From the NCBI GenBank assembly GCA_042571705.1, contig JBHPFV010000003.1, forward strand, positions 28,298-92,297: a stretch of DNA of 64,000 nucleotides. Direction: 5' to 3'. The position numbers were made by a program, and so were the translations under genes. The notes under the pieces are model-generated. The model had not been told where the DNA came from. It made no database searches and saw only the letters and a list, made by a program, of their open reading frames with translations. The DNA comes from Candidatus Omnitrophota bacterium. Its GTDB lineage: Bacteria > Omnitrophota > Gorgyraeia > JAFGHF01. Shown here piece after piece: positions 1-25,351 of the stretch; the stretch's first letter is position 1, and each line of letters begins with the position of its first letter.

Positions 1-60
1 CCATGCGTTAATTGTGCGTCTAGGCAAAGATTTTTGCCGGACAAAACCGCGTTGCGGTGA
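1..60 (+). CDS. 3' end of an ORF truncated by the window edge, product unknown
   Basis: Frame 1 is open from base 1 to TGA at 58-60 (..PCVNCASRQRFLPDKTALR*), abutting the ATG at 61. Too short to assign a family. Confidence 0.25.
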   Translation, partial: PCVNCASRQRFLPDKTALR

Positions 61-831
61 ATGCCCTTTAAAAAAATGGAAATAGTAATTTTAGGTTCAG
101 GAACCGGCGTGCCTTCGTTAAGGCGGGGCGCACCCGGTTTGTTGGTCAAAGCAGGGCATGATTACTTGCTGTTTGATACCGGGCCCGGAACAATCAAAAA
201 GCTACTAGAAATAGGCCTGACTTATCATGATATCACCAGGATATTTTACACCCATTTTCACACCGATCATACCTTGGATTTGGCGGCTATTTTATTCGCG
301 GCAAAATATGGCCTTTCCCTGCGCAAGCAAGAACTGCAGGTAATTGGGCCTCAGGGGTTAGGGCATTTTTATAAAGGATTGTTAGGGCTTTATGGTCAGG
401 TGATTATCCCTGAGGCCTATCAACTCAAGCTTCAGGAAATCGGCCCGGGCGATGAGCTTAACTTTGATGCTTATAATATCCTCACCCGCAAGATGCAGCA
501 TTGCCCGGAAAGCCTGGCCTATCGTCTGGAAGCAAATGGCAAAAGCATGGTTTATTCCGGCGATACCGCTGATTGTGAAGAGATCGTCGAGTTGGGGCAA
601 AATGCCGATATTTTAATCTTAGAGTGTTCTTTTCCAAATCGAATCAAGGTAGCCGGGCATTTAATCCCGGAACAAGCCGCAACTATCGCTCGAAAATGTA
701 ACTGTAAAAAACTGGTGTTGACGCATCTTTATCCGGTTTGTGAACAGGCTCAGATACTTGAGCAGGCAAAAAAAGAATTTAGCGGTGAAATTGTAGTAGC
801 AAGCGACTTGATGTCGATTAAGCTGATTTGA
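61..831 (+). CDS. MBL-fold metallo-hydrolase (short RNase Z/ElaC-like)
   Basis: 256 aa with the metallo-beta-lactamase signature HFHTDH (HxHxDH) and later His/Asp ligands (SGDT.., LTHLYP). Confidence 0.8.
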   Translation: MPFKKMEIVILGSGTGVPSLRRGAPGLLVKAGHDYLLFDTGPGTIKKLLEIGLTYHDITRIFYTHFHTDHTLDLAAILFAAKYGLSLRKQELQVIGPQGLGHFYKGLLGLYGQVIIPEAYQLKLQEIGPGDELNFDAYNILTRKMQHCPESLAYRLEANGKSMVYSGDTADCEEIVELGQNADILILECSFPNRIKVAGHLIPEQAATIARKCNCKKLVLTHLYPVCEQAQILEQAKKEFSGEIVVASDLMSIKLI

Positions 832-888
832 GAAGATTTAGCTTGCAGATTTTGGGTTTATTTTGTAGTATAGTACCTGGAGGCAAAG

Positions 889-1275
889 ATGAGAACCTCA
901 TTATTGTGCGCGGCATTATTATTATTTTCGCTGGCAGCTTTTGCGGATGCGGATTCTGAAATTAGGGAAGAAGTTCAACAGCTGCAAGAACATAAATTAG
1001 CAATAGAGCAGACAAGAATTAGTCAGCCGGAGATAAAAAACCTTAAGCCTACGATTACTTATTCTTTACGCGAACCAAAAACTGACTATTCGTTTTCTCA
1101 GGCCACATTTGCAGTCCGTCAGCCCAAGACTAAAACCTTTGAGGACTTAAAGACCAGCTATACTCTGCGCAGGATTAAAAACAAAGGCATTAGTCAGTTG
1201 GAGTATCGCTATCTTATGCCCCGGAGCCCTTTTGTTTACGGAGATCGAAACGCAGCATCTTTGATCAGCGAATAA
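889..1275 (+). CDS. secreted hypothetical protein
   Basis: 128 aa. N-terminal signal peptide MRTSLLCAALLLFSLAAFADA. RBS ctGGAGGcaaagATG. No domain recognised. Confidence 0.5.
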   Translation: MRTSLLCAALLLFSLAAFADADSEIREEVQQLQEHKLAIEQTRISQPEIKNLKPTITYSLREPKTDYSFSQATFAVRQPKTKTFEDLKTSYTLRRIKNKGISQLEYRYLMPRSPFVYGDRNAASLISE

Positions 1276-1460
1276 GGAGTAGTGGTGAAATGTACTCCAC
1301 TTCGTAAGCTGTTGGGAAATTTTATCCTAAAATTTCCCAACACTTCGTGGAGTTAATTCGCACAGTCACTTATGTTCGCTTACTGGACCCCTGCATTAAG
1401 GATTACAGGGTTTGCCCTTGTGGGCTTAGTTTGCTCCATAAGTGACGTGCTCATTAAGGA
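1276..1460 (+). promoter_or_regulatory. highly structured intergenic region (nested inverted repeats), function unknown
   Basis: Perfect 14-bp stem 1310-1323/1329-1342 (TGTTGGGAAATTTT / AAAATTTCCCAACA) enclosed by CTCCAC/GTGGAG. A second inverted repeat GTCACTTATG 1365-1374 / CATAAGTGAC 1437-1446 encloses CCCTG/CAGGG and GCCC/GGGC hairpins. Confidence 0.4.
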
Positions 1461-1826
1461 GTGGTGATGAAGGAAAGAAGAAAATTTGTCCGCTTAAATA
1501 TTCCTTTGGAAGTCAGCTATACGATACAGGGGACAGATCAGGATCCGCAGAGAAGTGTCACCAAAAACATCAGCCCTAATGGCGCCAGCTTCACTGTAGA
1601 AGAAGATTCGCCCAAAGGGACGATGTTCGACATCAACATTAGAATCCCTGAGCAGGCTGAGCCCATTCCGATTAAGGCCAAAATAGTCTGGTCCCAGAAA
1701 GAAGCCGAGCAAGAGCAGGCCAGTTATAATGCCGGCTTTGAATTCATTCAGATCCCCGAGAATAGCAAGCAAATGTTCTTTCAATATTTGTGTAATTTTA
1801 TGTATGACCAATTCAAAAAGCTTTAA
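1461..1826 (+). CDS. PilZ domain protein (c-di-GMP receptor)
   Basis: RRKFVR (RxxxR) and NISPNG (D/NxSxxG) motifs. The track ORF starts at GTG 1461; ATG at 1467 sits 5 nt after AAGGAG and is the likelier start. Confidence 0.8.
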   Translation: MVMKERRKFVRLNIPLEVSYTIQGTDQDPQRSVTKNISPNGASFTVEEDSPKGTMFDINIRIPEQAEPIPIKAKIVWSQKEAEQEQASYNAGFEFIQIPENSKQMFFQYLCNFMYDQFKKL

Positions 1827-1835
1827 GAGGAAGAA

Positions 1836-2288
1836 ATGGAACTAAAACAAAAAATTGAGGATGATTTTAAGCAGGCCTTAAAAAGTAAAAATCAGCTGAC
1901 TGTTTCAACTTTGCGGATGTTGAAGGCGGCCTTACACAATAAAGAGATCGAGCAAAAGGGCAAGGACCTTTCCACTGAGCAGATTTATAAAATTATCAGC
2001 AAACAAGTTAAACAGCGCCAAGAGTCTATTGAGCAGTTCAAAAAAGGAAAAAGAGACGAACTAGCCGAGCAGGAGACTAAAGAACTGAAGATTTTGGAGC
2101 AATATCTGCCGCAGCTGCTCTCAGAGGATGAGGTCACCGCAGTAGTGAAAAAAATAATTACAGAAAACGCTGGCGTCGGGCCGGCTGAGTTGGGCAAGGT
2201 AATGAAGCTGGCGATGGCCGAATTTAAGGGCCAGGCCGACGGAAAACTAGTTAACCAGATTGCCCTCAAACTTTTAAAGCCAACTTAA
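1836..2288 (+). CDS. GatB/YqeY domain protein
   Basis: 150 aa. The N-terminus MELKQKIEDDFKQALKSKNQLTVSTLRMLKAALHNKEIE matches the YqeY family pattern, as do length and charge. Confidence 0.85.
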   Translation: MELKQKIEDDFKQALKSKNQLTVSTLRMLKAALHNKEIEQKGKDLSTEQIYKIISKQVKQRQESIEQFKKGKRDELAEQETKELKILEQYLPQLLSEDEVTAVVKKIITENAGVGPAELGKVMKLAMAEFKGQADGKLVNQIALKLLKPT

Positions 2289-2318
2289 AAAGCTAAAAAC
2301 AGATAAAAGGGAAAAGCT

Positions 2319-2828
2319 GTGGCAGGGATTCAAATAGGTTTAGTGATATTCTTTATTTTTGTTTTAGGGATTATTTGCCATGATGAGGTCAAAAAAGTAA
2401 GACAGCAGCGCAAGACATCTAAATTAAATAGATTTTGGCATCACGGCCGGGAAAGAAGAAAGACTGTCCGCTTAGACACTGAGATCGCGGTTTCATATGA
2501 GGTAGTTGCCCATAATAAGGCCCAGAAGCATCTTTCCCGAACCACCAATATTAGTATCGGCGGGATTAATCTTGCGCTGGAAGAGAAACTGCCGCCGAAT
2601 ACAGTGTTGAGTCTGCATTTTAATATTCCACAATCTGCGCAGACGCTTAATGTAAAAGGAAAAGTTATTTGGGCCAAAGAAATATTGGCTAAGTTCGTTA
2701 CTTCCGGACACCAGCGATTCTTTGCTACCGGAATAAAATTTGTTTATTTATCTAAAAAAGACGAAGTTGTTTTGGACAATTTTATCAGGCAAAGCGCAAA
2801 ACAGCCTAGGTTGCAAACTGTCAGTTAA
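2319..2828 (+). CDS. membrane-anchored PilZ domain protein
   Basis: N-terminal TM helix (IQIGLVIFFIFVLGIIC), then RRKTVR and NISIGG PilZ motifs. GTG start. Confidence 0.8.
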   Translation: MAGIQIGLVIFFIFVLGIICHDEVKKVRQQRKTSKLNRFWHHGRERRKTVRLDTEIAVSYEVVAHNKAQKHLSRTTNISIGGINLALEEKLPPNTVLSLHFNIPQSAQTLNVKGKVIWAKEILAKFVTSGHQRFFATGIKFVYLSKKDEVVLDNFIRQSAKQPRLQTVS

Positions 2829-2839
2829 AAGGGGGAGGA

Positions 2840-3172
2840 ATGAGAAATTTAAAATATTTGTTACTGGCTGTTTTTTTAATAGGGTGTGCGGAGATTCAGC
2901 CTCCCGGCCCCAAAGAGATTATGCACCAGCCTTTAGGCGGCAGCGCCTTACGCATGGGAATGGCTAAGGAACAAGTCAAATCAATCTGGGGTGAGCCGGA
3001 CCTGGTCCGCGGGCTCGATTCAAACACCCCGGGCACAGTAAAGGAAGAGTGGGTTTACCGCGGTCGTTACCCCAATTTACCGATAAATGTGGATTATCTT
3101 GCGGAGAGTCAATACCTAGTATTTGATGGCAACAATCTTGTAGAGATGAATTTACGCAAACACAGTAAGTAA
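2840..3172 (+). CDS. BamE/SmpA-OmlA-like outer-membrane lipoprotein
   Basis: Lipobox LIGC after a signal peptide. GMAKEQVKSIWGEPD resembles the SmpA/OmlA core motif. 110 aa. Confidence 0.55.
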   Translation: MRNLKYLLLAVFLIGCAEIQPPGPKEIMHQPLGGSALRMGMAKEQVKSIWGEPDLVRGLDSNTPGTVKEEWVYRGRYPNLPINVDYLAESQYLVFDGNNLVEMNLRKHSK

Positions 3173-3185
3173 AAAGGAAACAGCA

Positions 3186-3551
3186 ATGGCTGATAACAAA
3201 AGAATTTTTGACCGGCTCGAAGGCGTGGTTAATGTGCGTTACGGGGTCAAGGGTCGGGATAAAGAAAAGATCGAAAGTCTACCCCGAAACATTGGGGGCG
3301 GGGGACTGGGGGTCTATTTAACAGAGAAGTTAGAGCCAGGTACAGTCATCGAGCTGGAAATTACCGTTCCCGACAATCCACAGAAGGCTATCCGCGGCGT
3401 TGGGGAAGTGCTTTGGACTAAACATTACGGTACTATCAGCCCCGAACAGGGTGTAAATTTGCACGAGACCGGGATCAGGTTTGTCGATATTAACCCGCTG
3501 GCAGTTGGTAGAGTCTATACCTACCATAGCCGGCAAGCTGACCTTTCCTAG
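3186..3551 (+). CDS. PilZ domain protein (variant binding motif)
   Basis: KRIFDR supplies RxxxR. The second motif is NIGGGG (Ser replaced by Gly). Confidence 0.7.
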   Translation: MADNKRIFDRLEGVVNVRYGVKGRDKEKIESLPRNIGGGGLGVYLTEKLEPGTVIELEITVPDNPQKAIRGVGEVLWTKHYGTISPEQGVNLHETGIRFVDINPLAVGRVYTYHSRQADLS

Positions 3552-3594
3552 AAGCCCAGCCTTCATAAATCTTACCTTTTTTATGCCAGTCGTC

Positions 3595-3623
3595 TTGACA
3601 AAGCCATTTTTTTGGTATATACT
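3595..3623 (+). promoter_or_regulatory. sigma70-type promoter upstream of the HD-GYP gene
   Basis: TTGACA (3595-3600), 17-nt spacer, TATACT (3618-3623), about 75 nt before the ATG at 3702. Confidence 0.5.
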
Positions 3624-3701
3624 TTTTATAGTATAGCCTAATTTGTAAGACTTTACCAGACTTTTCAAGATACGAGCCACGGGCGTTGCGAAGGAAAATT
3701 A

Positions 3702-5213
3702 ATGCCTGTCGCTCATTTTTTTTCTCAAGAGCCTAAATTTCTCTCCTTAGTCAGCTGTCTAAACAATCTTGGTGTCGGCTTAAGCGTAATCAATAAAGAA
3801 ATGCGGATTGTTTGGACCAATCAGGTCTTAAGCAATACTTTCGGCCCTCCCGAGAGCATTTGCCAGCGGCCATGCTACCAAGTGTTCTTTCGCAGAAAGG
3901 ACATCTGTTTAGATTGTCCGGTGGTTGAGACTTTTCGTACCGGTGAGCCCAGCCAAAAAAACAGCCAACTGCATTTTGGCCAAAATGGCCAAAAACGGTA
4001 TTACCACCTCAGCACCACACCGATAAGCTATAATGGTAAGGTAGCGGAAGTGCTGGAATTGAGTTATGACGTTACCAAAGATAAGGCCCTGGAAGAGAGG
4101 ATCCGCCATAAAAGCTCCGAATTGAATACCGCCCTCAGGGAATTATTTACAGTTTATTCGCTCAGCCGTGAGATTATTTCCACTTTGGACTTACAAAAAG
4201 TACTGACCTCAGTAGCCCAGACTGTCTGTTCAATCATTCATACTAAGGCCTGTGTCTTAAGGTTGGTTGATGAAGACAGTAAGCAGCTAAACGTTGCTTC
4301 CAGTTCCGGGATTAGCGCAGCCTATCTACAGAATACACCGTTAAAAGTAGGGCAGGGCCTTTCCGGGCTGATGGCCAACAGCGCCCGGCCGGTCATTTGT
4401 CCTGACCTGAGTAAAGAAAAAAACGCTAAATACTGCAATTACATCAATCAGGAGGGGTTTCAATCAGCCTTAGGCGTGCCGATTATCTTTAAGGATCAGG
4501 TCCTAGGGACCATTTTGACTTACGACAAATTAGTCAGAAATTACAGCAGGGTAGAAGTAATGCTTTTGTCTACTTTTGCCTCGCAGGTGGCGATTGCCAT
4601 TAAAAACGCCAAACTATATGAAAAGGTACATTTAAATTATTTCAATACCTTAAGTACCCTGGCCCTGGCCATGGAGGCCCGCGATCCTTATACTCACGGC
4701 CATTCTTTAAGGGTCACGGCCTACGCCACAGAGATCGCCCGGGCCTTAGGGTTGGCCCCACGTGAAATCAAGATTATTCTGCGGGCTGGCAAGTTACACG
4801 ATGTAGGTAAAATCGCGGTGCCCGATGCCATTTTAATGAAACCCGGGCCGTTAACCCGGAAAGAGAAAGAGGTAATTCAGCTCCATCCGCTTAAGGGGGT
4901 GGAGATGCTGGCGCCGCTTAAGTTCCTTGAGTCAGGTTTTCCTCTAATAAAACATCATCATGAAAGGTTTGATGGCAAAGGTTACCCCGCTGGACTAAAA
5001 AAGGGCAGGATCCCCGTTATCGCCCGGTTGTTTTCCTGTGCCGATGCCTTTGATGCGATGACTTCCGACCGTCCTTACCGCTGCAAAATGACCTACCAGA
5101 CCGCGATAGGGGAGCTGAAAAAAAATGCCGGCAGCCAATTCGACCCCGATATTGTCAAGAAATTCGTTTCCGTGCTCAAGCGTAAACCAGCATTCTTTTC
5201 TACCCTGGCCTAA
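3702..5213 (+). CDS. PAS-like/GAF/HD-GYP c-di-GMP phosphodiesterase
   Basis: The C-terminal domain has the intact HD-GYP set: HGHSLRV, LHDVGK, LHPLKG, HHHERFDGKGYP, DAFDAMTSDRPY. A central GAF-like region follows a coiled coil. The N-terminal sensor region carries C-x3-C-x10-C-x2-C. Confidence 0.9.
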   Translation: MPVAHFFSQEPKFLSLVSCLNNLGVGLSVINKEMRIVWTNQVLSNTFGPPESICQRPCYQVFFRRKDICLDCPVVETFRTGEPSQKNSQLHFGQNGQKRYYHLSTTPISYNGKVAEVLELSYDVTKDKALEERIRHKSSELNTALRELFTVYSLSREIISTLDLQKVLTSVAQTVCSIIHTKACVLRLVDEDSKQLNVASSSGISAAYLQNTPLKVGQGLSGLMANSARPVICPDLSKEKNAKYCNYINQEGFQSALGVPIIFKDQVLGTILTYDKLVRNYSRVEVMLLSTFASQVAIAIKNAKLYEKVHLNYFNTLSTLALAMEARDPYTHGHSLRVTAYATEIARALGLAPREIKIILRAGKLHDVGKIAVPDAILMKPGPLTRKEKEVIQLHPLKGVEMLAPLKFLESGFPLIKHHHERFDGKGYPAGLKKGRIPVIARLFSCADAFDAMTSDRPYRCKMTYQTAIGELKKNAGSQFDPDIVKKFVSVLKRKPAFFSTLA

Positions 5214-5278
5214 AGTTCCCAAATAGGGCAGAGGCTTAAAGGCGTTTAGCTTTCCCCTATTTTCTGTTAACAGGGGAG

Positions 5279-6057
5279 AGGTAAGTCCGAGTAACTCAAG
5301 GGGCATCGAGTAAGTTCTAGTAAAATTGAGGGCCTCGAGTAAGAAGTGGTAAAATTGGACCATGCGAGTAAGTTGAGGTAAAATAAAGCCTATCGAGTAA
5401 GTTCTAGTAAAATCAAACCCAACGAGTAACTTCCAGTAAAACCGAACCACACGATTAACTCTAAGTAAAATCAAGGCCATTGAGTAAGAACCGGTAAGCT
5501 CAAGACATCGAGTAACTATGAGTAAAATTGGACCCAATGATTAACTGTAAGTAAGTTCGGGACCCTTGAGTAATTCCCGGTAAAATCGAAGGGTACGGTT
5601 AACTGTAAGTAAGTTGGCCCGAAAAAGTAAGACCGGGTAAATTAGCCAGTGGCGAGTAATAGTAAGTAACTTGGGCCCAAAAAGTAAGCGCAGGTAAGGG
5701 CTCAGAATTTGGTAAATCTAAGTAAGTTGGCGCAAAAAAGTAAACCCAGGTAACTTCTCTTCAAAAAGTAAGCCCAAGTAAATGCGCCCGATTTAGTAAA
5801 TCTGAGTAAGTTAGTTCAAAAAAGTAAGCGCAGGTAAGAGCCCCGAATTTAGTAAATCTGAGTAAGTTGGCCCGAAAAAGTAACTCCAAGTAACAGCCAT
5901 GAAAAAAGTAATTCTGAGTAACTTCTCCCAAAAAAGTAAACCTAAGTAAGAGCTCTGAAAACGGTAAGACTGAGTAAGAGGTCTGAAAAAAGTAAGACCA
6001 GGTAAGAGGCTTTAAAAAAGTAAACCCCGGTAAATTGGCCCCAAAAAGTAAGCGCAT
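5279..6057 (+). repeat. phased GTAA tandem array, about 27 units of 29 bp then 28 bp, non-coding
   Basis: GTAA begins at 5281, 5291, 5310, 5320, 5339, 5349 ... (alternating +10/+19), switching near 5600 to +10/+18 through 6048. About 55 in-phase GTAA plus 3 TTAA variants by hand count. TAA therefore closes all three + frames. Confidence 0.95.
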
Positions 6058-6295
6058 AAAAGGCCAGTTAAATGGGCTTTTTTTAGTAAATAAAATTAAC
6101 TACATCAAAGTCAGGTTTTTAAAGTAATCAGAGTTAATTTGGATTAAGTGGCGGTTGCGGAGTAAGCAAAAATGAACAAAAGTAAGTGACAATTTCCGAG
6201 TAAGTTTAGGTAAGTTCAAAGAAGTGAGAATTTCGCAGTAAGATGGAGTAATATCAGTTAAGCCTGAGCGCAGTAATAGTTGGGTTCAGGTAGAC
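6058..6295 (+). repeat. degenerate tail of the GTAA array
   Basis: Further aGTAAg/aGTAAt copies at irregular spacing (about 6086, 6123, 6161, 6181, 6200, 6210, 6238, 6248, 6272). A weak hairpin plus T7 at 6058-6084 separates this tail from the regular array. Confidence 0.7.
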
Positions 6296-6344
6296 ATTAG
6301 TTATGGCTCATCCGGTATTAACTCGATAATTTCAATGCGAAATT

Positions 6345-6368
6345 AGGCCTTTAGCGGGCCTTTTTTTT
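6345..6368 (+). terminator. putative intrinsic terminator closing the array region
   Basis: AGGCC (6345-6349), 7-nt loop, GGCCT (6457 is not meant: 6357-6361), followed by 7 further T. The stem is short (5 bp, 4 of them GC). Confidence 0.5.
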
Positions 6369-6636
6369 GAATGTTGCTAACTATGACTTTTATGCTTGAG
6401 TTAACCTTGATTATTAAACTTGGCCCCACTTCCTACTTTATCCACACCCTTTTCCACATTTGTTGTATCTTATTGACTTACAATATGTTATATTTATAAT
6501 CGCCAATTGATGTAGTTAACATAAGATATATTATGCCACCAAGTGTCCGATATGGGGAAAAGCGCACAAAACAGCCTTGTATTGCGATTTTTGGGGTTAT
6601 TAAGGGTTATGGTTGGGTTGAGTTGGCCAACAGTTT

Positions 6637-6849
6637 TTAGCTGCTTATTTGTTTTTGATTAAGCCACTCTTGGATTAGTTTTTGCTTTTGGGGCTGCGGA
6701 AGGCTTTTGCGATTTAGCCAGCGGTAAACCGTGTCTCTGGAGACCCGGACATATTTGGCTAAATCGGCTATATTGGCATCAAATTGGCGGTGGGTTTGCC
6801 AGTAAGCGATCAACTCGGAGATGGTTTGGTTCGTTTGAATTTTGGGCAT
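6637..6849 (-). CDS. small helix-turn-helix DNA-binding protein (AlpA/excisionase-like HTH)
   Basis: 70 aa. IADLAKYVRVSRDTVYRWLNRK is a typical HTH_17/MerR-like recognition segment. Confidence 0.55.
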   Translation of the reverse strand: MPKIQTNQTISELIAYWQTHRQFDANIADLAKYVRVSRDTVYRWLNRKSLPQPQKQKLIQEWLNQKQISS

Positions 6850-6899
6850 TTCTGGCTGAAATTCGGCCTATTTTTTGGGCTCGTTTAATGACATTCAGG

Positions 6900-7085
6900 C
6901 TAGTCGCGGTCTAAGTCTTTGATCACCATAGTATGCTCAGTAAGGTTCTGTAAAAAATGCCTGAAGTCATAATAAAGCTTGCCCATGTCCTCTTTGCTAT
7001 CCCCTTTTGATTCCTTGAGGGTGGCACAGCCCAGACAAAATAACGAAAAGTAAATCACGATTATTATTGGCAGCAAGCGCTTCAT
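6900..7085 (-). CDS. small secreted or lipoprotein, hypothetical
   Basis: 61 aa. Signal peptide MKRLLPIIIVIYFSLFCLGCATL with Cys residues at the likely cleavage site. Sits upstream of the HTH gene on the same strand. Confidence 0.45.
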   Translation of the reverse strand: MKRLLPIIIVIYFSLFCLGCATLKESKGDSKEDMGKLYYDFRHFLQNLTEHTMVIKDLDRD

Positions 7086-7145
7086 TTCGTACCCTCTATC
7101 TCATATTGAAAATTTTCGATATGTCAGCGTTATTCCACTGCACAT

Positions 7146-7174
7146 ATTATAACCGACAAATTGCTATATGCCAA
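7146..7174 (-). promoter_or_regulatory. sigma70-type promoter for the lipoprotein/HTH pair
   Basis: On the - strand: TTGGCA (7174-7169), 17-nt spacer, TATAAT (7151-7146), about 60 nt upstream of the ATG at 7085. Confidence 0.45.
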
Positions 7175-7240
7175 CTTTTTTTTGATCTAGAGCCAGCAGT
7201 AAAATATGCCTAAAATTATACTGATTAAAGGCTAGTAATC

Positions 7241-7249
7241 TGGTATAAT
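7241..7249 (+). promoter_or_regulatory. extended -10 promoter element for the alpha/beta hydrolase gene
   Basis: TGgTATAAT at 7241-7249. The downstream RBS is ctGGAGGtactagATG. Confidence 0.4.
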
Positions 7250-7300
7250 GAAAAGTACTATTGAAGGAGTTCTAAGATCTAACTAAACTGGAGGTACTAG

Positions 7301-8281
7301 ATGAAGTTCCCTTTCAGGTGCGTTTTTGTTCTTATTTGTGCATTAATTTTATTTGCGAGCCAGGGAAAGCTGCTGCTTGCTGATAATATTGGAGATTTGG
7401 AGTATACGATTGAGCTAGAAGGATCTGCAGGTAAAGAAACGATCGCTATTCTGCCCTGCAGCGAGGGTGAGCATACATTCATTGCAATACACGGAGCAAC
7501 CACTACTAATCATCTCATGAGATGGGAAAATTTATGGTCTAAAGGCGAGGTTATATTAGCCGGACTTCCAGGGCACGGAGAAGTTCCTCAGTATGGGCGT
7601 TCACACTATTTACAGTGGACTCCCCAACATTTCATTGATGTTGGCGTGGCAACGGTGAAAAAATATAGTCAGGGGCGAGCAGTCACGTTGATTGGCCATT
7701 CTTTTGGAGGTGGCGTAGCTTTGGGGGTTGCCCTTGAAGCCCCTGAGCTTGTTGAGAGATTGATTGTGGTTGATCCAGTTGTCTGGCCTAAGTTAGGCGG
7801 GCTGGATGCTGTAGTAATGTTTATGTGTTCAGCTCCACCGGTGGGTCGTCTTTTGATTAATTCTATTGTATGGTATACAAAAAGATCGTTATCTGAATAC
7901 AGCAAGGGATTTGAAGCTTTTGTTAGTAAAAGTAACGTAAAAACATTTTGCGCAAGCCCTAAAGTCAAGAAAGTCTTAGCACGAAGTTACACCCCTTATG
8001 TTAAGACTCCAGGGTATACATTTTCCGAAATTTATATGGTAATGAAGAAGTTTGATTTACGTTCTCAGCTTAAGGACAATCCTTTCCGGATCCCCACCTT
8101 GATTATACATGGAGATCAGGACCCGAGCGTACCGTTGATGCAAGCAGAGTGGCTAGCTAAGGCGCTTCCCGATGCAGATCTTGTCGTTCTTCCTGATACG
8201 GGGCATTTGGGTTTCCTGGAAAACGAAGAGTTTTTTAATGAACAGGTGGAAAATTGGCTTGATGCCCATCCGGTTAATTAG
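7301..8281 (+). CDS. alpha/beta-fold hydrolase with signal peptide
   Basis: Nucleophile elbow GHSFGG (GxSxG), late Asp (HGDQD) and His (DTGHLGF), and a hydrophobic N-terminal signal sequence. Confidence 0.8.
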   Translation: MKFPFRCVFVLICALILFASQGKLLLADNIGDLEYTIELEGSAGKETIAILPCSEGEHTFIAIHGATTTNHLMRWENLWSKGEVILAGLPGHGEVPQYGRSHYLQWTPQHFIDVGVATVKKYSQGRAVTLIGHSFGGGVALGVALEAPELVERLIVVDPVVWPKLGGLDAVVMFMCSAPPVGRLLINSIVWYTKRSLSEYSKGFEAFVSKSNVKTFCASPKVKKVLARSYTPYVKTPGYTFSEIYMVMKKFDLRSQLKDNPFRIPTLIIHGDQDPSVPLMQAEWLAKALPDADLVVLPDTGHLGFLENEEFFNEQVENWLDAHPVN

Positions 8282-23059: not shown

Positions 23060-25351
23060 TTATGTTTCCTCTTTGAGAATTTTAATAAATATCTCTACGA
23101 TCTGAGGGTCAAATTGCTTACCCGCGTTTTTAATTAGTTCATTTTGAGCTTGCTCTACTGAGAGCGCCTTGAGATAAGGCTTATCGCTAATCATGGCTTG
23201 ATAGGCATCAACAATAGCGATGATCCTGGATTCCAAAGGTATGGCCTCGCCTTTGAGGCCTTCCAGATAACCCTTGCCATCCCAGCGCTCATGATGATAG
23301 CACACTATCCTGGCAATGTCTTCAAAATCTTCTAATTTTTCAGCCACGTTTTTGCTGTAAATAACGTGTTTTTTAATGGTTTCAAACTCTGCCTTGGTTA
23401 ATGAGCCTGGCTTGGTTAGGATATTAACAGGAATGCGCATTTTCCCGACATCATAAATTAAGGTAGCGGTTTCCAGTTGCTCCAATTGCCGCTTCGATAA
23501 ATTGAACCGCTCCCCTATTTTTCTGGCTAGTTGTGCGTTCTTCACATAGTGCAGGCGGGCATACCCCACAATCTCTGTAAGTTTGGTTACCAATTTTGTT
23601 ATATGAGTTAGTCTGTCTTCGAGCTCTTGCAACAGGCAAAGGTTATAATAGATACCCTTCTTCTTCATTAGTTGGCTGTGTGTTCCCATCTCCCGCATTT
23701 TCCCCATGTGCAGCACGAGGATCCTGTCGGCGTTACGAACAGTAGAGAGATGGTGAGCAATCACAATAACAGTCCTTTGTCCTTTTAAAATTTTTAAAAT
23801 ATTTTTAATCTCATTTGTGGTTTCGGCATCAACATTTGCCGTAGCTTCGTCAAGGACTATAATCTGGGGATTAAATAAACAAGCACGAGCAAAAGAGATT
23901 AGCTGTTTTTGACCGGTAGATAGCCTCGAGCCTAATTCTTGGACCTTTTCTTTGTATCCATGAGGAAGCTGAGATATAAATTTATCAGCGCCCACATAAA
24001 CAGCTGCTTGTTGGACTTGCTGGCTATCTATTTCTGAATTTCGTAATTTAATATTATCCTCTATACTTCCCGAGAACAGAAAAGGATCCTGCGGCACTAT
24101 TCCAATCAGCGAACGAAGCTTACCCTTGTTAATATTTTGAATATTAACGCCGTCAATTAGAATTTGCCCCTTATTCATTTCGTAAAATCGAGCCAATAGG
24201 TTGACTATTGAGGTTTTACCTGCCCCAGTATGGCCGACAATACCGATTTGCTCGCCTTTTTTAATTTTAAGATTAAAATTGTTGAGCACAAAGTTATTAT
24301 TATCGTAGGCAAACCAGACATCATTGAATTCGATTTTATCCTTAAAGTCCGGCAATTTGACCTTACCTTGAGGCGACTCCAGCTCACTCTTGGTATCCAA
24401 AAATCCCAAAATTCTTTCTAAAGAAACCCAGGCAGTCTGCAAGACCTTGTTCGCCTTGACTGTCCTTTCGATCAAAGCGAAAAAAAGCCCCATCGACCCG
24501 ATAAAGACAAGCAAAGACCCCAAACTTAGAGTTCCCTGCAGTACCTTTCTTCCTCCGTAGCCTAGTATCAAGCTCATTACCGCGGCCCTAAATATTGCTG
24601 TTACTGAAGGGGTCAGGTTTAAATAAGAAAGAGAACGAATGCTCGTATCGGCGTAACTTTTATTAAAATAATACAATTTCTCATTCTGCTTTTTTTCTTG
24701 TCGAAAAAGCTTGATCAGGGAAATGCCGGTTATGTTTTCTTGAAGAAAGGCATTGATCTTTCCAAACCAAGACCGGCTTTCCCTGGTTGCTTTTGCGGCT
24801 TTGCGGTTGATCCACACCAGAAAAATTCCGAATCCCAAAATCAATACATAGAATATCAAAGCAAGTTGATAATTTTGATAAAACAAGTAACCGACGATTC
24901 CCAGGAAAAGAAATACGTTGCCTAATATACTAGTGAATTGTTCAGTTGCCACAGGTTGTAAATGCTGAACATCATTAGTAGCCACTGTCAATAATTTTCC
25001 AATAGGCGTCCGATCAAAAAATGCAAGAGGCATCGTTTGTAAATGGGCAAAGATTTTCATTCTCAGGTCCAACATTACGTTTTGTCCGATATAGCTAGTT
25101 AAATAAATCCGCAAGAAACTAAACAACAGCAGCAAACCGAGCACAAAAAGATATATTAAGAGCACATTCTTGAGTAACCCCAGGAAGTCTGCTCTGAGGA
25201 CATAAACATCTATAGCTGTTTGCAATAGGTGTAATTGGAAGATTTGTAAAAACGCAATACCCAGCTGGAAAAAGACGCACAAGATAATCAGATTCTGGTA
25301 CGGCTTGGTATGTCTGATTAACATTTTTAGATTAAGTTTTCTCTTTGCCAT
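23060..25351 (-). CDS. ABC exporter half-transporter (TMD-NBD) fused to a C-terminal, partly degenerate HD-GYP domain
   Basis: Six N-terminal TM helices. Walker A GHTGAGKTS, signature LSTGQKQ, Walker B IIVLDEAT, H-loop IAHHLS. A ~180-aa tail then carries IYDVGK (HD changed to YD) and HHERWDGKGYLEG (GYP changed to GYL). Confidence 0.9.
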   Translation of the reverse strand: MAKRKLNLKMLIRHTKPYQNLIILCVFFQLGIAFLQIFQLHLLQTAIDVYVLRADFLGLLKNVLLIYLFVLGLLLLFSFLRIYLTSYIGQNVMLDLRMKIFAHLQTMPLAFFDRTPIGKLLTVATNDVQHLQPVATEQFTSILGNVFLFLGIVGYLFYQNYQLALIFYVLILGFGIFLVWINRKAAKATRESRSWFGKINAFLQENITGISLIKLFRQEKKQNEKLYYFNKSYADTSIRSLSYLNLTPSVTAIFRAAVMSLILGYGGRKVLQGTLSLGSLLVFIGSMGLFFALIERTVKANKVLQTAWVSLERILGFLDTKSELESPQGKVKLPDFKDKIEFNDVWFAYDNNNFVLNNFNLKIKKGEQIGIVGHTGAGKTSIVNLLARFYEMNKGQILIDGVNIQNINKGKLRSLIGIVPQDPFLFSGSIEDNIKLRNSEIDSQQVQQAAVYVGADKFISQLPHGYKEKVQELGSRLSTGQKQLISFARACLFNPQIIVLDEATANVDAETTNEIKNILKILKGQRTVIVIAHHLSTVRNADRILVLHMGKMREMGTHSQLMKKKGIYYNLCLLQELEDRLTHITKLVTKLTEIVGYARLHYVKNAQLARKIGERFNLSKRQLEQLETATLIYDVGKMRIPVNILTKPGSLTKAEFETIKKHVIYSKNVAEKLEDFEDIARIVCYHHERWDGKGYLEGLKGEAIPLESRIIAIVDAYQAMISDKPYLKALSVEQAQNELIKNAGKQFDPQIVEIFIKILKEET

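Follow-up and report, generated by a model that had tools for sequence, protein, structure and literature searches.

The DNA examined here is a window of 64 kb, the whole stretch that was analysed, from the metagenome-assembled genome (MAG) of an uncultured Omnitrophota bacterium, and all inferences are drawn from sequence. Near the left end of the window is a non-coding region of about 1 kb in which the tetranucleotide GTAA occurs 64 times on the plus strand (5281-6276). About 240 bp downstream of the last copy lies a dif site. The array and the dif site are made up of the following features:

5273..5281, plus strand: distal boundary motif GGGGAGAGG (family consensus (T)AGGGGAGAG(G)), seen before the first GTAA pair in relatives.
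5281..5600, plus strand: regular array of 29-bp units, GAGTAA(G/C)-N4-RGTAAAAT-N11, with 10/19 spacing (logo of 54 units from 13 genomes; lattice 9.63 bp, R = 0.89).
5601..6051, plus strand: regular array of 28-bp units, AAAAAGTAA-N3-YnRGTAAGT-N2-gCCC, with 10/18 spacing (logo of 59 units; lattice 9.35 bp, R = 0.86).
6048..6276, plus strand: conserved tail with GTAA spacings of 38, 38, 38, 20, 18, 10, 28, 10 and 25 (14 loci; lattice 9.48 bp, R = 0.83).
6514..6541, plus strand: dif, AGTTAACATAA-GATATA-TTATGCCACCA, 28 bp with two 11-bp partial inverted-repeat arms and a 6-bp centre.

The first-pass annotation of this DNA had reported the array at 5279-6057, with GTAA starts at 5281, 5291, 5310, 5320 and so on up to 6048. 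All of these are present, and the interval holds 55 copies of GTAA together with three in-phase TTAA variants near 5455, 5541 and 5599. The alternating spacing of 10/19 bp, followed by 10/18 bp, is also as reported, except that the change had been placed near 5600 and the earliest interval of 18 bp is found already at 5494 to 5512. The end of the array had been set too early, in that a phased but degenerate tail continues past 6057 with nine more copies at 6086, 6124, 6162, 6182, 6200, 6210, 6238, 6248 and 6273. There is no copy of TTAC, the form of GTAA on the opposite strand, in 5279-6300, and in the rest of the window GTAA is found at background density (293 copies in about 63 kb). The arrangement GTAA-N6-GTAA occurs 30 times in the window, 26 of them in 5281-6251, whereas 100 dinucleotide shuffles give 2.0 +/- 1.5 (maximum 8). 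Tandem Repeats Finder (TRF) reports periods of 29, 28, 56, 84 and 112 bp at the array, the last three being higher-order repeats indicating some local duplication.

Every GTAA position, in the regular units and in the tail alike, fits a lattice of 9.35-9.63 bp. Over 13 loci the fit is R = 0.52-0.97, and at least 0.69 in 11 of them, where about 0.15-0.25 is expected for random points. Each regular unit of 28-29 bp has two adjacent lattice positions filled and one empty, and in the tail the positions without GTAA are filled by (G/A)TTAA words. In the logos, which were built from units chosen for the presence of GTAA, the first site is (A)AAAR-AGTAA and the second is Y-n-R-GTAA-(G/A)-T, after which come a GC-rich stretch and an A-tract. 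Three units of 28 bp make 84 bp or eight helical turns, which places each pair about a third of a turn further round the helix than the one before and which matches the 84-bp super-period found independently by TRF.

The surroundings of the array were missing from the first-pass annotation, where neither the dif site, 460 bp beyond the array end given there, nor the replication terminus is mentioned. On the minus strand the dif site reads TGGTGGCATAA-TATATC-TTATGTTAACT, with a centre of the B. subtilis type. Of its 28 positions, 21 are identical to the dif of E. coli (GGTGCGCATAA-TGTATA-TTATGTTAAAT), and in the XerD arm 10 of 11 agree; the reference sequences for E. coli and B. subtilis were taken from PMC3025954, where dif sites are also found to coincide with the point at which GC skew shifts. 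In the window the skew is positive in 1-8000 and negative in all of 8001-64000, with the cumulative maximum at 6-8 kb. The genes to the left of dif are all on the plus strand and, for 57 kb to the right, all but one are on the minus strand; the genes flanking array and dif are likewise convergent in the related loci. The inversion of the skew and the switch of gene orientation at dif show that the region is the replication terminus. Judging from these features, 6514-6541 is a canonical dif site at the chromosomal terminus, where recombination by XerC/XerD under FtsK is predicted. The 34 open reading frames (ORFs) of the window that were scanned against Pfam include no recognisable xer or ftsK gene. 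A replication origin, with DnaA boxes and repeats, was considered for the locus and rejected on the sign of the GC skew and the converging genes, both of which are those of a terminus.

In the search for relatives, one genome per species was scanned for three GTAA pairs with the spacing of the array, which gave 115 loci. Eight of them have the same three-part architecture of 10/19 pairs, then 10/18 pairs and then a tail of 38-38-(38)-20-18-10-28-10, and these are from Candidatus Omnitrophota MAGs or from MAGs labelled Planctomycetia. Five further array loci came from contigs encoding homologues of a helix-turn-helix (HTH) protein described below (L238, L240, L243 and L244) and from a metagenome scan (L167). 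The window and its 13 relatives constitute 14 independent assemblies from NCBI, JGI, ENA and Logan. Conservation of motif and phase in relatives, a check proposed in the first-pass annotation, is borne out by this set, since all 14 assemblies share the order of a distal AGGGGAGAGG motif, 3-27 GTAA pairs, the tail, a TTWTCCACA box and dif. The arrays are about 290 to 1000 bp long. The only complete chromosome (L101, CP070837.1) has its array at about 894 kb of 1.55 Mb.

Conservation is unevenly distributed over the array. The series of spacings in the tail is identical in all 14 loci, and the alignment of 13 tails is free of indels in the first 200 or so columns, with two exceptions: L244 is offset by 4 columns, and L028 has one gap. 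Among the GTAA of the tail, seven are invariant in the 13 genomes, and the mean column identity is 69%. In the regular units, on the other hand, the 20 positions outside both GTAA are only 38% identical, within as between genomes, while motif and spacing are kept. What is conserved is therefore GTAA, its orientation and its spacing, and not the sequence of the unit; from their divergence, the units are old. At the distal end, 9 of 13 loci have the (T)AGGGGAGAG(G) word at 8-42 bp ahead of the first pair, and it can be seen by eye also in L101 and L240, with a degenerate form in L028. Elsewhere in the window this G-rich word has 2 versus 0 copies, which is too rare for a skew test of the kind used for KOPS (FtsK-orienting polar sequences) or Chi.

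Repeats with varying copy number raise the question of a neutral minisatellite, generated by replication slippage at the terminus and without function. The number of pairs does vary between genomes, and the repeats of 56, 84 and 112 bp found by TRF point to some local duplication. Yet the spacers are near saturation while the motif is kept in phase and in one orientation across 14 genomes, the tail is conserved position by position, and there are conserved motifs at both ends of the array, all of which makes this explanation extremely improbable. An assembly artefact is unlikely as the source of the array because the architecture recurs in 14 independent assemblies, although the exact copy number could still be mis-assembled. 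In L009 there is a run of N inside the array with flanking units duplicated. The repeat thus troubles assemblers, and in MAGs built from short reads its copy number is best taken as an approximation.

The array is specific to one clade. When the dif core, which is invariant in the 14 loci (all share a block ending in AGTTAACATAA-GATATA-TTAT...), was used as a search pattern, dif-type 28-mers were found in 120 metagenome contigs from many bacteria, mostly with a Bacillus-like other arm. Only one of these 120 loci has an array, and its contig belongs to the same clade; the array as a general property of dif was rejected on this ground. The remaining matches to the spacing pattern in genome contigs are not homologous to the array. 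Those in cyanobacteria, Saprospiraceae and others are simple repeats of 14 bp (GTAAGTAA-N6), and in viral contigs no related array was found, the matches there being exact simple tandem repeats. The first-pass annotation had seen no link to a transposase, and a mobile element or phage as the origin is rejected here, given that the array is flanked by syntenic chromosomal genes and that the matches in viral contigs are unrelated.

About 60 loci from gut and rumen Firmicutes (including L003, L007, L012, L016, L019, L033, L041, L068 and L079) contain a different element with the same 10/19 phasing of GTAA. It has three or four 29-bp units (aACAGTAAAgaACAGTAAAa-N9) between a TTGACA hexamer and the start of a gene for a STAND-like ATPase of about 345 amino acids (Pfam ATPase_2/AAA_14) with the N-terminus M..NP(F/Y)(T/S)L.FGK.P. 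This element looks like a direct-repeat operator and is possibly autoregulatory.

The gene upstream of the array varies by locus and encodes an HD-GYP protein, a PilZ protein, a large protein with an N-terminal PilZ domain, or others. An association with HD-GYP genes, which the first-pass annotation had proposed to look for, is not retained among the related loci. In the window, 2319-5213 is rich in PilZ and HD-GYP proteins, suggesting heavy cyclic di-GMP signalling, and a 763-amino-acid fusion encoded at 23060-25351 on the minus strand combines the membrane and ATPase domains of an ABC transporter with an HD-GYP-type HD_5 domain.

The array had been described as non-coding, and this is correct. 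All six frames are closed, with 10-36 stops each in the array of the window, and likewise in all 13 arrays; a coding repeat is rejected for this reason and because the period of 28/29 bp is not a multiple of three. Two ORFs on the minus strand (4995-5537 and 5761-6057) are regarded as by-products of the scarcity of stop codons in TTAC-rich sequence. Neither tRNA nor tmRNA genes were found. It has no match in Rfam at the gathering threshold or at E <= 1, which rejects a known RNA family and agrees with the earlier statement that no described element has this motif and phasing. Structured RNA is rejected as well: the array folds no better than shuffled sequences (z = -0.2 and +0.5 for the two strands), and RNAalifold gives 0 consensus pairs in 13 tails. 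Folding of the tail is mildly better than in shuffles (z = -1.8 and -2.4). Hairpins can be seen by eye in tail units, with sequence and register that differ between genomes, and were not counted as covariation.

One of two readings put forward in the first-pass annotation was that the array is transcribed into a sponge RNA, in which (A)AAAGUAAG motifs titrate an RNA-binding protein such as Hfq. An unstructured, motif-rich array is what sponge RNAs have, and terminator-like hairpins on the plus strand at 6062-6085 (by eye) and 6345-6361, as well as the differing hairpins of the tail units, could be taken in its favour. But the T of GTAA falls on the free N position, and a reader of A-R-N triplets would not explain why no regular site, and none of the seven invariant motifs of the tail, has lost it; the second site, YnRGTAAGT, has no A-R-N context at all. 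Nor is a conserved promoter seen between the varying upstream genes and the array in the related loci. The lack of a consensus structure and of any Rfam match, and a base-exact spacing on a lattice like that of the DNA helix, are unlike known sponge RNAs, and the coupling to dif, which is a DNA site, is left without explanation. The sponge is thus highly improbable.

The other reading, a platform on double-stranded DNA with pairs of direct repeats one helical turn apart, is better supported. By analogy with iterons and plasmid centromeres, base-exact and helix-related spacing of a short oriented core is a signature of cooperative protein binding to duplex DNA. Double-stranded DNA is favoured over RNA because there is a single lattice of about 9.5 bp, because the spacing is exact across 14 genomes and because the array is coupled to dif. 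On this evidence the array is probably a protein-binding DNA element that is functionally tied to dif and to the terminus.

The position of the array relative to dif is constant. It lies between the last gene of one replichore and dif, in all 14 loci on the side of the XerD arm (AGTTAACATAA), and GTAA reads 5' to 3' toward dif on the leading strand. The distance between tail and dif varies from 97 to 283 bp. This orientation is that of KOPS, and the array might be a loading or orienting pad that directs FtsK hexamers to reach XerD from the productive side and so to trigger the resolution of dimers. Recombination is activated efficiently only by FtsK bound on the XerD side (PMC9226527), and the conserved G-rich polar word AGGGGAGAGG at the distal end would also suit such a pad. 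On the other hand, known KOPS and SpoIIIE recognition sequences (SRS) are single 7-8-mers and not phased pairs on a 9.5-bp lattice. Words containing GTAA are, unlike genome-wide KOPS, unskewed in the remaining 57 kb, so that an FtsK pad is decidedly unlikely. A genome-wide polar word of the KOPS type is rejected from the same counts: to the right of dif, GTAA has 218 copies on the leading and 270 on the lagging strand, and AGTAAG, AAGTAA and similar words are unskewed.

The constant one-sided position next to dif could also mean that the array holds accessory or arm-type sites for Xer recombination, where binding of XerD or an accessory protein would give directionality or topological selectivity, with XDS, to which XerD alone binds, as a further comparable case. 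Direct repeats that come in pairs 10 bp apart are a typical feature of integrase arm-type sites, and the in-phase G(A/G)TTAAC variants resemble the outer part of the XerD arm, AGTTAAC. The commonest site, GAGTAAG, differs from AGTTAAC at four of seven positions, however, and the units lack the inner ATAA of a Xer half-site. With a length of about 290-1000 bp and a variable distance to dif, the array is also unlike the accessory DNA of cer and psi with its 180 bp or so at a fixed distance, and Xer accessory sites are considered very unlikely.

The region between the tail and the first gene to the right of dif contains several further features:

6345..6369, plus strand: terminator-like hairpin (6345-6361) and T-run between the tail and the dif block, not conserved in the other loci.
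6438..6458, plus strand: two words matching the DnaA-box consensus, TTATCCACA (6438-6446) and TTTTCCACA (6450-6458).
6473..6500, plus strand: sigma-70-like promoter match TTGACT-16-TATAAT (11 of 12 positions), weakly conserved in relatives.
6542..6553, plus strand: dif-flanking motif AGTGTCCGATAT (family consensus RGTGTC(A/C)GAT), adjoining the XerC arm and conserved both where arrays are present and in lineages that lack them.
6637..6849, minus strand: gene for a 70-amino-acid HTH protein with four helices, the last gene before dif in the right replichore.

Since it is not conserved, the hairpin at 6345-6369 probably merely ends read-through from the left-hand genes. Another terminator-like site is found at 6854-6868 on the plus strand. 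In 12 of 13 array loci the distance from a TTWT(C/G)CACA box to the dif site that follows is exactly 76 bp, and two to three tandem copies of the box can be seen by eye in the array-less loci L236 and L241. The words matching the DnaA-box consensus are located here at a terminus and not at an origin. The predicted promoter at 6473-6500, between the boxes and dif, points across dif and is antisense to the HTH gene. The array-less L241 has a different tandem repeat at 6433-6625, made up of three 77-bp copies that contain inverted repeats, and it too is located on the XerD-arm side of its dif.

The HTH protein has 39 clusters of homologues among 5.8 billion proteins, and all clusters with an organism name are from Omnitrophota. 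Its AlphaFold model (predicted local distance difference test, pLDDT, 86) has a generic Cro/C1-like fold, and no significant relative was found in the PDB. The first-pass annotation had connected this protein with the array, whereas its gene is linked to dif. Of the 14 array assemblies, 12 have the gene directly beside dif on the side of the XerC arm, and the other two, L009 and L167, have no such gene; the same placement is found at six loci from distant lineages without an array (L236, L241, L246, L247, L248 and L249). The protein tracks dif and not the array, which makes it an improbable reader of GTAA. Across three types of HTH protein the lattice does not change, and it persists where the gene is absent; L101 and L240, for example, have nearly identical arrays and different HTH types. 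A separate protein probably reads GTAA.

The sequence flanking dif, RGTGTCAGAT, GTATGAAAT or CTGTGAAAT, changes with the recognition helix of the HTH protein:

Helix VSRDTVYRW: motif xGTGTC(A/C)GAT after dif, in 13 loci plus L247 (a duplicate of L246).
Helix VSRNTVYRW, grouped with the VSRDTVYRW type: motif GTGTCATAT, in L018.
Helix VSEKTI(Y/H)NW: motif AGTATGAAAT, in L010 and L243.
Helix VSRRTIYNW: motif CTGTGAAAT, in L101.
No HTH gene: no dif-flanking motif, in L009 and L167.

L243 has two tandem HTH paralogues, of which the one with EKTIHNW adjoins dif. The motif is kept where the surrounding intergenic DNA cannot be aligned, and the HTH protein probably reads it, though co-inheritance of adjacent DNA could account for part of the co-variation between motif and helix. 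The gene and the motif together may represent an undescribed dif-associated factor. In L074 (4383-6463), L059 (5431-7538) and L018 (3686-5760; all in array-oriented coordinates) the genes beside the HTH gene resemble those for a DinB-type Y-family polymerase and LexA, with a gene for a conserved protein of 94-106 amino acids among them. With the likenesses taken from N-terminal sequences alone, these genes would be an SOS-like cassette at the terminus beside dif.

The interpretation favoured for the array is a cis-acting element of the terminus and dif locus that acts as double-stranded DNA. Its 30-64 or so copies of (G/T)TAA, in one orientation on the single lattice of about 9.5 bp, would be binding sites for a small, sequence-specific putative protein that reads the 4-bp core. 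We infer that this protein binds as head-to-tail dimers, as is expected from the layout of two filled positions and one empty. As each dimer would be turned by roughly a third of a helical turn against the one before, the occupied array would be a nucleoprotein complex of 0.4-1 kb with polarity and helical order, beginning at the distal motif AGGGGAGAGG and ending in the tail, 97-283 bp from the XerD arm of dif. Such a complex might mark and insulate the dimer-resolution site by stopping or unloading machinery that moves toward dif, be it SMC (structural maintenance of chromosomes) condensin on its way down the arms, a replisome from the opposite replichore or RNA polymerase reading through, and as a result dif would stay accessible to XerCD/FtsK at division. 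The single orientation of GTAA fits a polar barrier. There is also a precedent in Thermococcus kodakarensis, where a 1.9-kb intergenic region around dif with convergent genes is an Smc boundary built by a TrmBL2 filament; its authors argue that XerD/XDS in B. subtilis and MatP/matS in E. coli likewise keep SMC from crossing dif (PMC11840125). The chances that the array is a platform for a polar complex beside dif that serves as barrier or organiser of the terminus are about even, and the role of a barrier specifically is doubtful.

Several observations weigh against this interpretation. A GTAA-binding protein was not recognisable among the 34 ORFs of the 64-kb window scanned against Pfam, nor were genes for SMC, ParR-like or ribbon-helix-helix proteins recognised among them. 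The array is one-sided, and a symmetric barrier or a fork trap is expected on both sides of dif. The number of pairs has a 9-fold range (3-27) and the distance from tail to dif varies, which suggests a tolerant rather than a precise element. Related lineages have dif, the HTH gene and the box without the array, so the array is accessory and not a core requirement. Transcription of the region, judged from sequence alone, could also take place.

The same complex could instead serve as a centromere-like anchor, by which the region around dif would be attached to the division apparatus or sister termini would be kept paired until the cell divides, in the manner of MatP/matS or ZapT but with the sites gathered at a single locus. 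Its dense, phased layout with many copies is that of the plasmid centromeres parC, parH and sopC, copy number is variable as in centromere arrays, and a location at the terminus beside dif would be suitable. However, no gene for an adaptor or partner is adjacent, the known terminus anchors (MatP/matS and ZapT were compared) use dispersed palindromic sites, and a tether leaves the single orientation and the one-sidedness unexplained. An anchor of this kind is unlikely.

To our knowledge, fork traps are known only in enterobacteria and in Bacillus and its relatives, and exclusion of SMC at the terminus only in E. coli, B. subtilis and one archaeon. Termination, unloading of condensin and the presentation of dif to the division machinery are known mainly from a few model groups of bacteria. 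If the proposed function as barrier or organiser is true, terminus systems have been invented repeatedly with different parts. A more far-reaching version, in which bacteria have evolved a third terminus system independently of Tus/Ter and RTP/Ter (fork arrest) and of MatP/matS and XerD/XDS (SMC exclusion), with the array as its cis element and a sequence-programmed polar filament fused to dif that sets the end of replication and/or of loop extrusion in this Omnitrophota clade (nanobacteria of the PVC group, Planctomycetes-Verrucomicrobia-Chlamydiae) and is read by an unrecognised protein family, is rather unlikely. If the array is neither barrier nor organiser, it nonetheless provides a clean natural case of a long protein-binding lattice with strict phasing. 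Its simple code, a 4-bp core on a lattice of about 9.5 bp, can be used directly as bait for the reader protein, and the array can serve as a marker of the terminus in Omnitrophota MAGs.

Searches of the literature rendered no paper that mentions both Omnitrophota and dif, and a full-text search on repeat arrays at dif gave no such array. The boundary in T. kodakarensis (PMC11840125) resembles the array region in that it is a long non-coding stretch between convergent genes that contains or abuts dif, and it is a proposed roadblock for SMC. It differs in being AT-rich and rigid without a phased motif and in lying on both sides of dif, compared with a lattice of a 4-bp motif on one side, in bacteria and with a putative binder. 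XDS of B. subtilis and matS of E. coli are, like the array, DNA sites of the terminus near dif, where XerD and MatP unload or exclude SMC or organise Ter. Both are single sites spread over hundreds of kilobases; XDS are dif-like, and matS is a 13-bp palindrome (GTGACRNYGTCAC) dispersed over the Ter macrodomain. The array, in contrast, has 30-64 clustered direct repeats of a 4-bp core within at most 1 kb at one locus. XDS are sites similar to the XerD half of dif to which XerD binds without recombination; in the array the in-phase GRTTAAC variants resemble the outer arm AGTTAAC, but the main sites GAGTAAG and AAAGTAA do not resemble it and the inner ATAA is absent.

The complexes of Tus/Ter and RTP/Ter are polar protein-DNA barriers at the terminus, as is proposed for the array. 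In both systems the gene for the terminator protein lies beside one of its Ter sites. No homologue of tus or rtp was recognised among the 34 ORFs scanned against Pfam, which include all ORFs within 6 kb of the array. Ter sites are single, asymmetric sites of 23-30 bp in two opposed groups, whereas the array is one tandem set on one side, and no opposed copy is found within 57 kb to the right of dif. The Ter core of E. coli (GTTGTAAC) happens to contain GTAAC, which is no test of relatedness. KOPS and SRS share with the array that they are polar, on the leading strand and pointing to dif. KOPS are, however, genome-wide skewed 8-mers that switch orientation at dif, and GTAA is unskewed outside the array. 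In cer and psi, one-sided accessory DNA adjoins the XerCD core site as it does here. That DNA has no repeats, measures about 180 bp, keeps a fixed distance from the core site on its XerC side and binds PepA, ArgR and ArcA; the array is repetitive, on the XerD-arm side, 290-1000 bp long and 97-283 bp from dif.

Outside the terminus, the sponge RNAs CrcZ and CsrB/RsmZ are likewise non-coding and repeat a short motif many times, in runs of A-R-N triplets or as GGA in loops. They have promoters, terminators, stem-loops, irregular spacing and families in Rfam, in contrast to the exact spacing of the array and the absence of a conserved promoter there. CRISPR, which the first-pass annotation had set aside, is not supported here either. 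CRISPR arrays consist of nearly identical repeats of 24-48 bp with unique spacers of about the same length, mostly close to cas genes; here only 4 bp are conserved per site with a period of 28-29 bp, the other 20 positions of the unit are 38% identical, and no cas genes were seen among the ORFs of the window that were scanned.

The closest resemblance is to the centromeres and iterons of plasmids (parC of R1, pB171 and pSK41, parH of TP228, sopC and the omega heptads), where, as in the array, short direct repeats follow one another in tandem, phased exactly and in relation to the helix, in numbers that vary, and read as a lattice to which small dimeric proteins could bind cooperatively. In parH of TP228 the boxes are 4 bp (ACTC), and an invariant core of 4 bp is typical of ribbon-helix-helix readers. 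Plasmid centromeres lie beside a par or rep operon, whereas no par or rep gene was found in the window, and the array is chromosomal, syntenic across MAGs and at the terminus. It also differs in its motif and in the lattice of 9.5 bp with two positions filled and one empty. The array thus appears to work like a lattice of the centromere or iteron type while it sits where Ter, matS and XDS act, and it is a member of none of these groups. It would be a phased protein-binding repeat array in a new place and with a new code.

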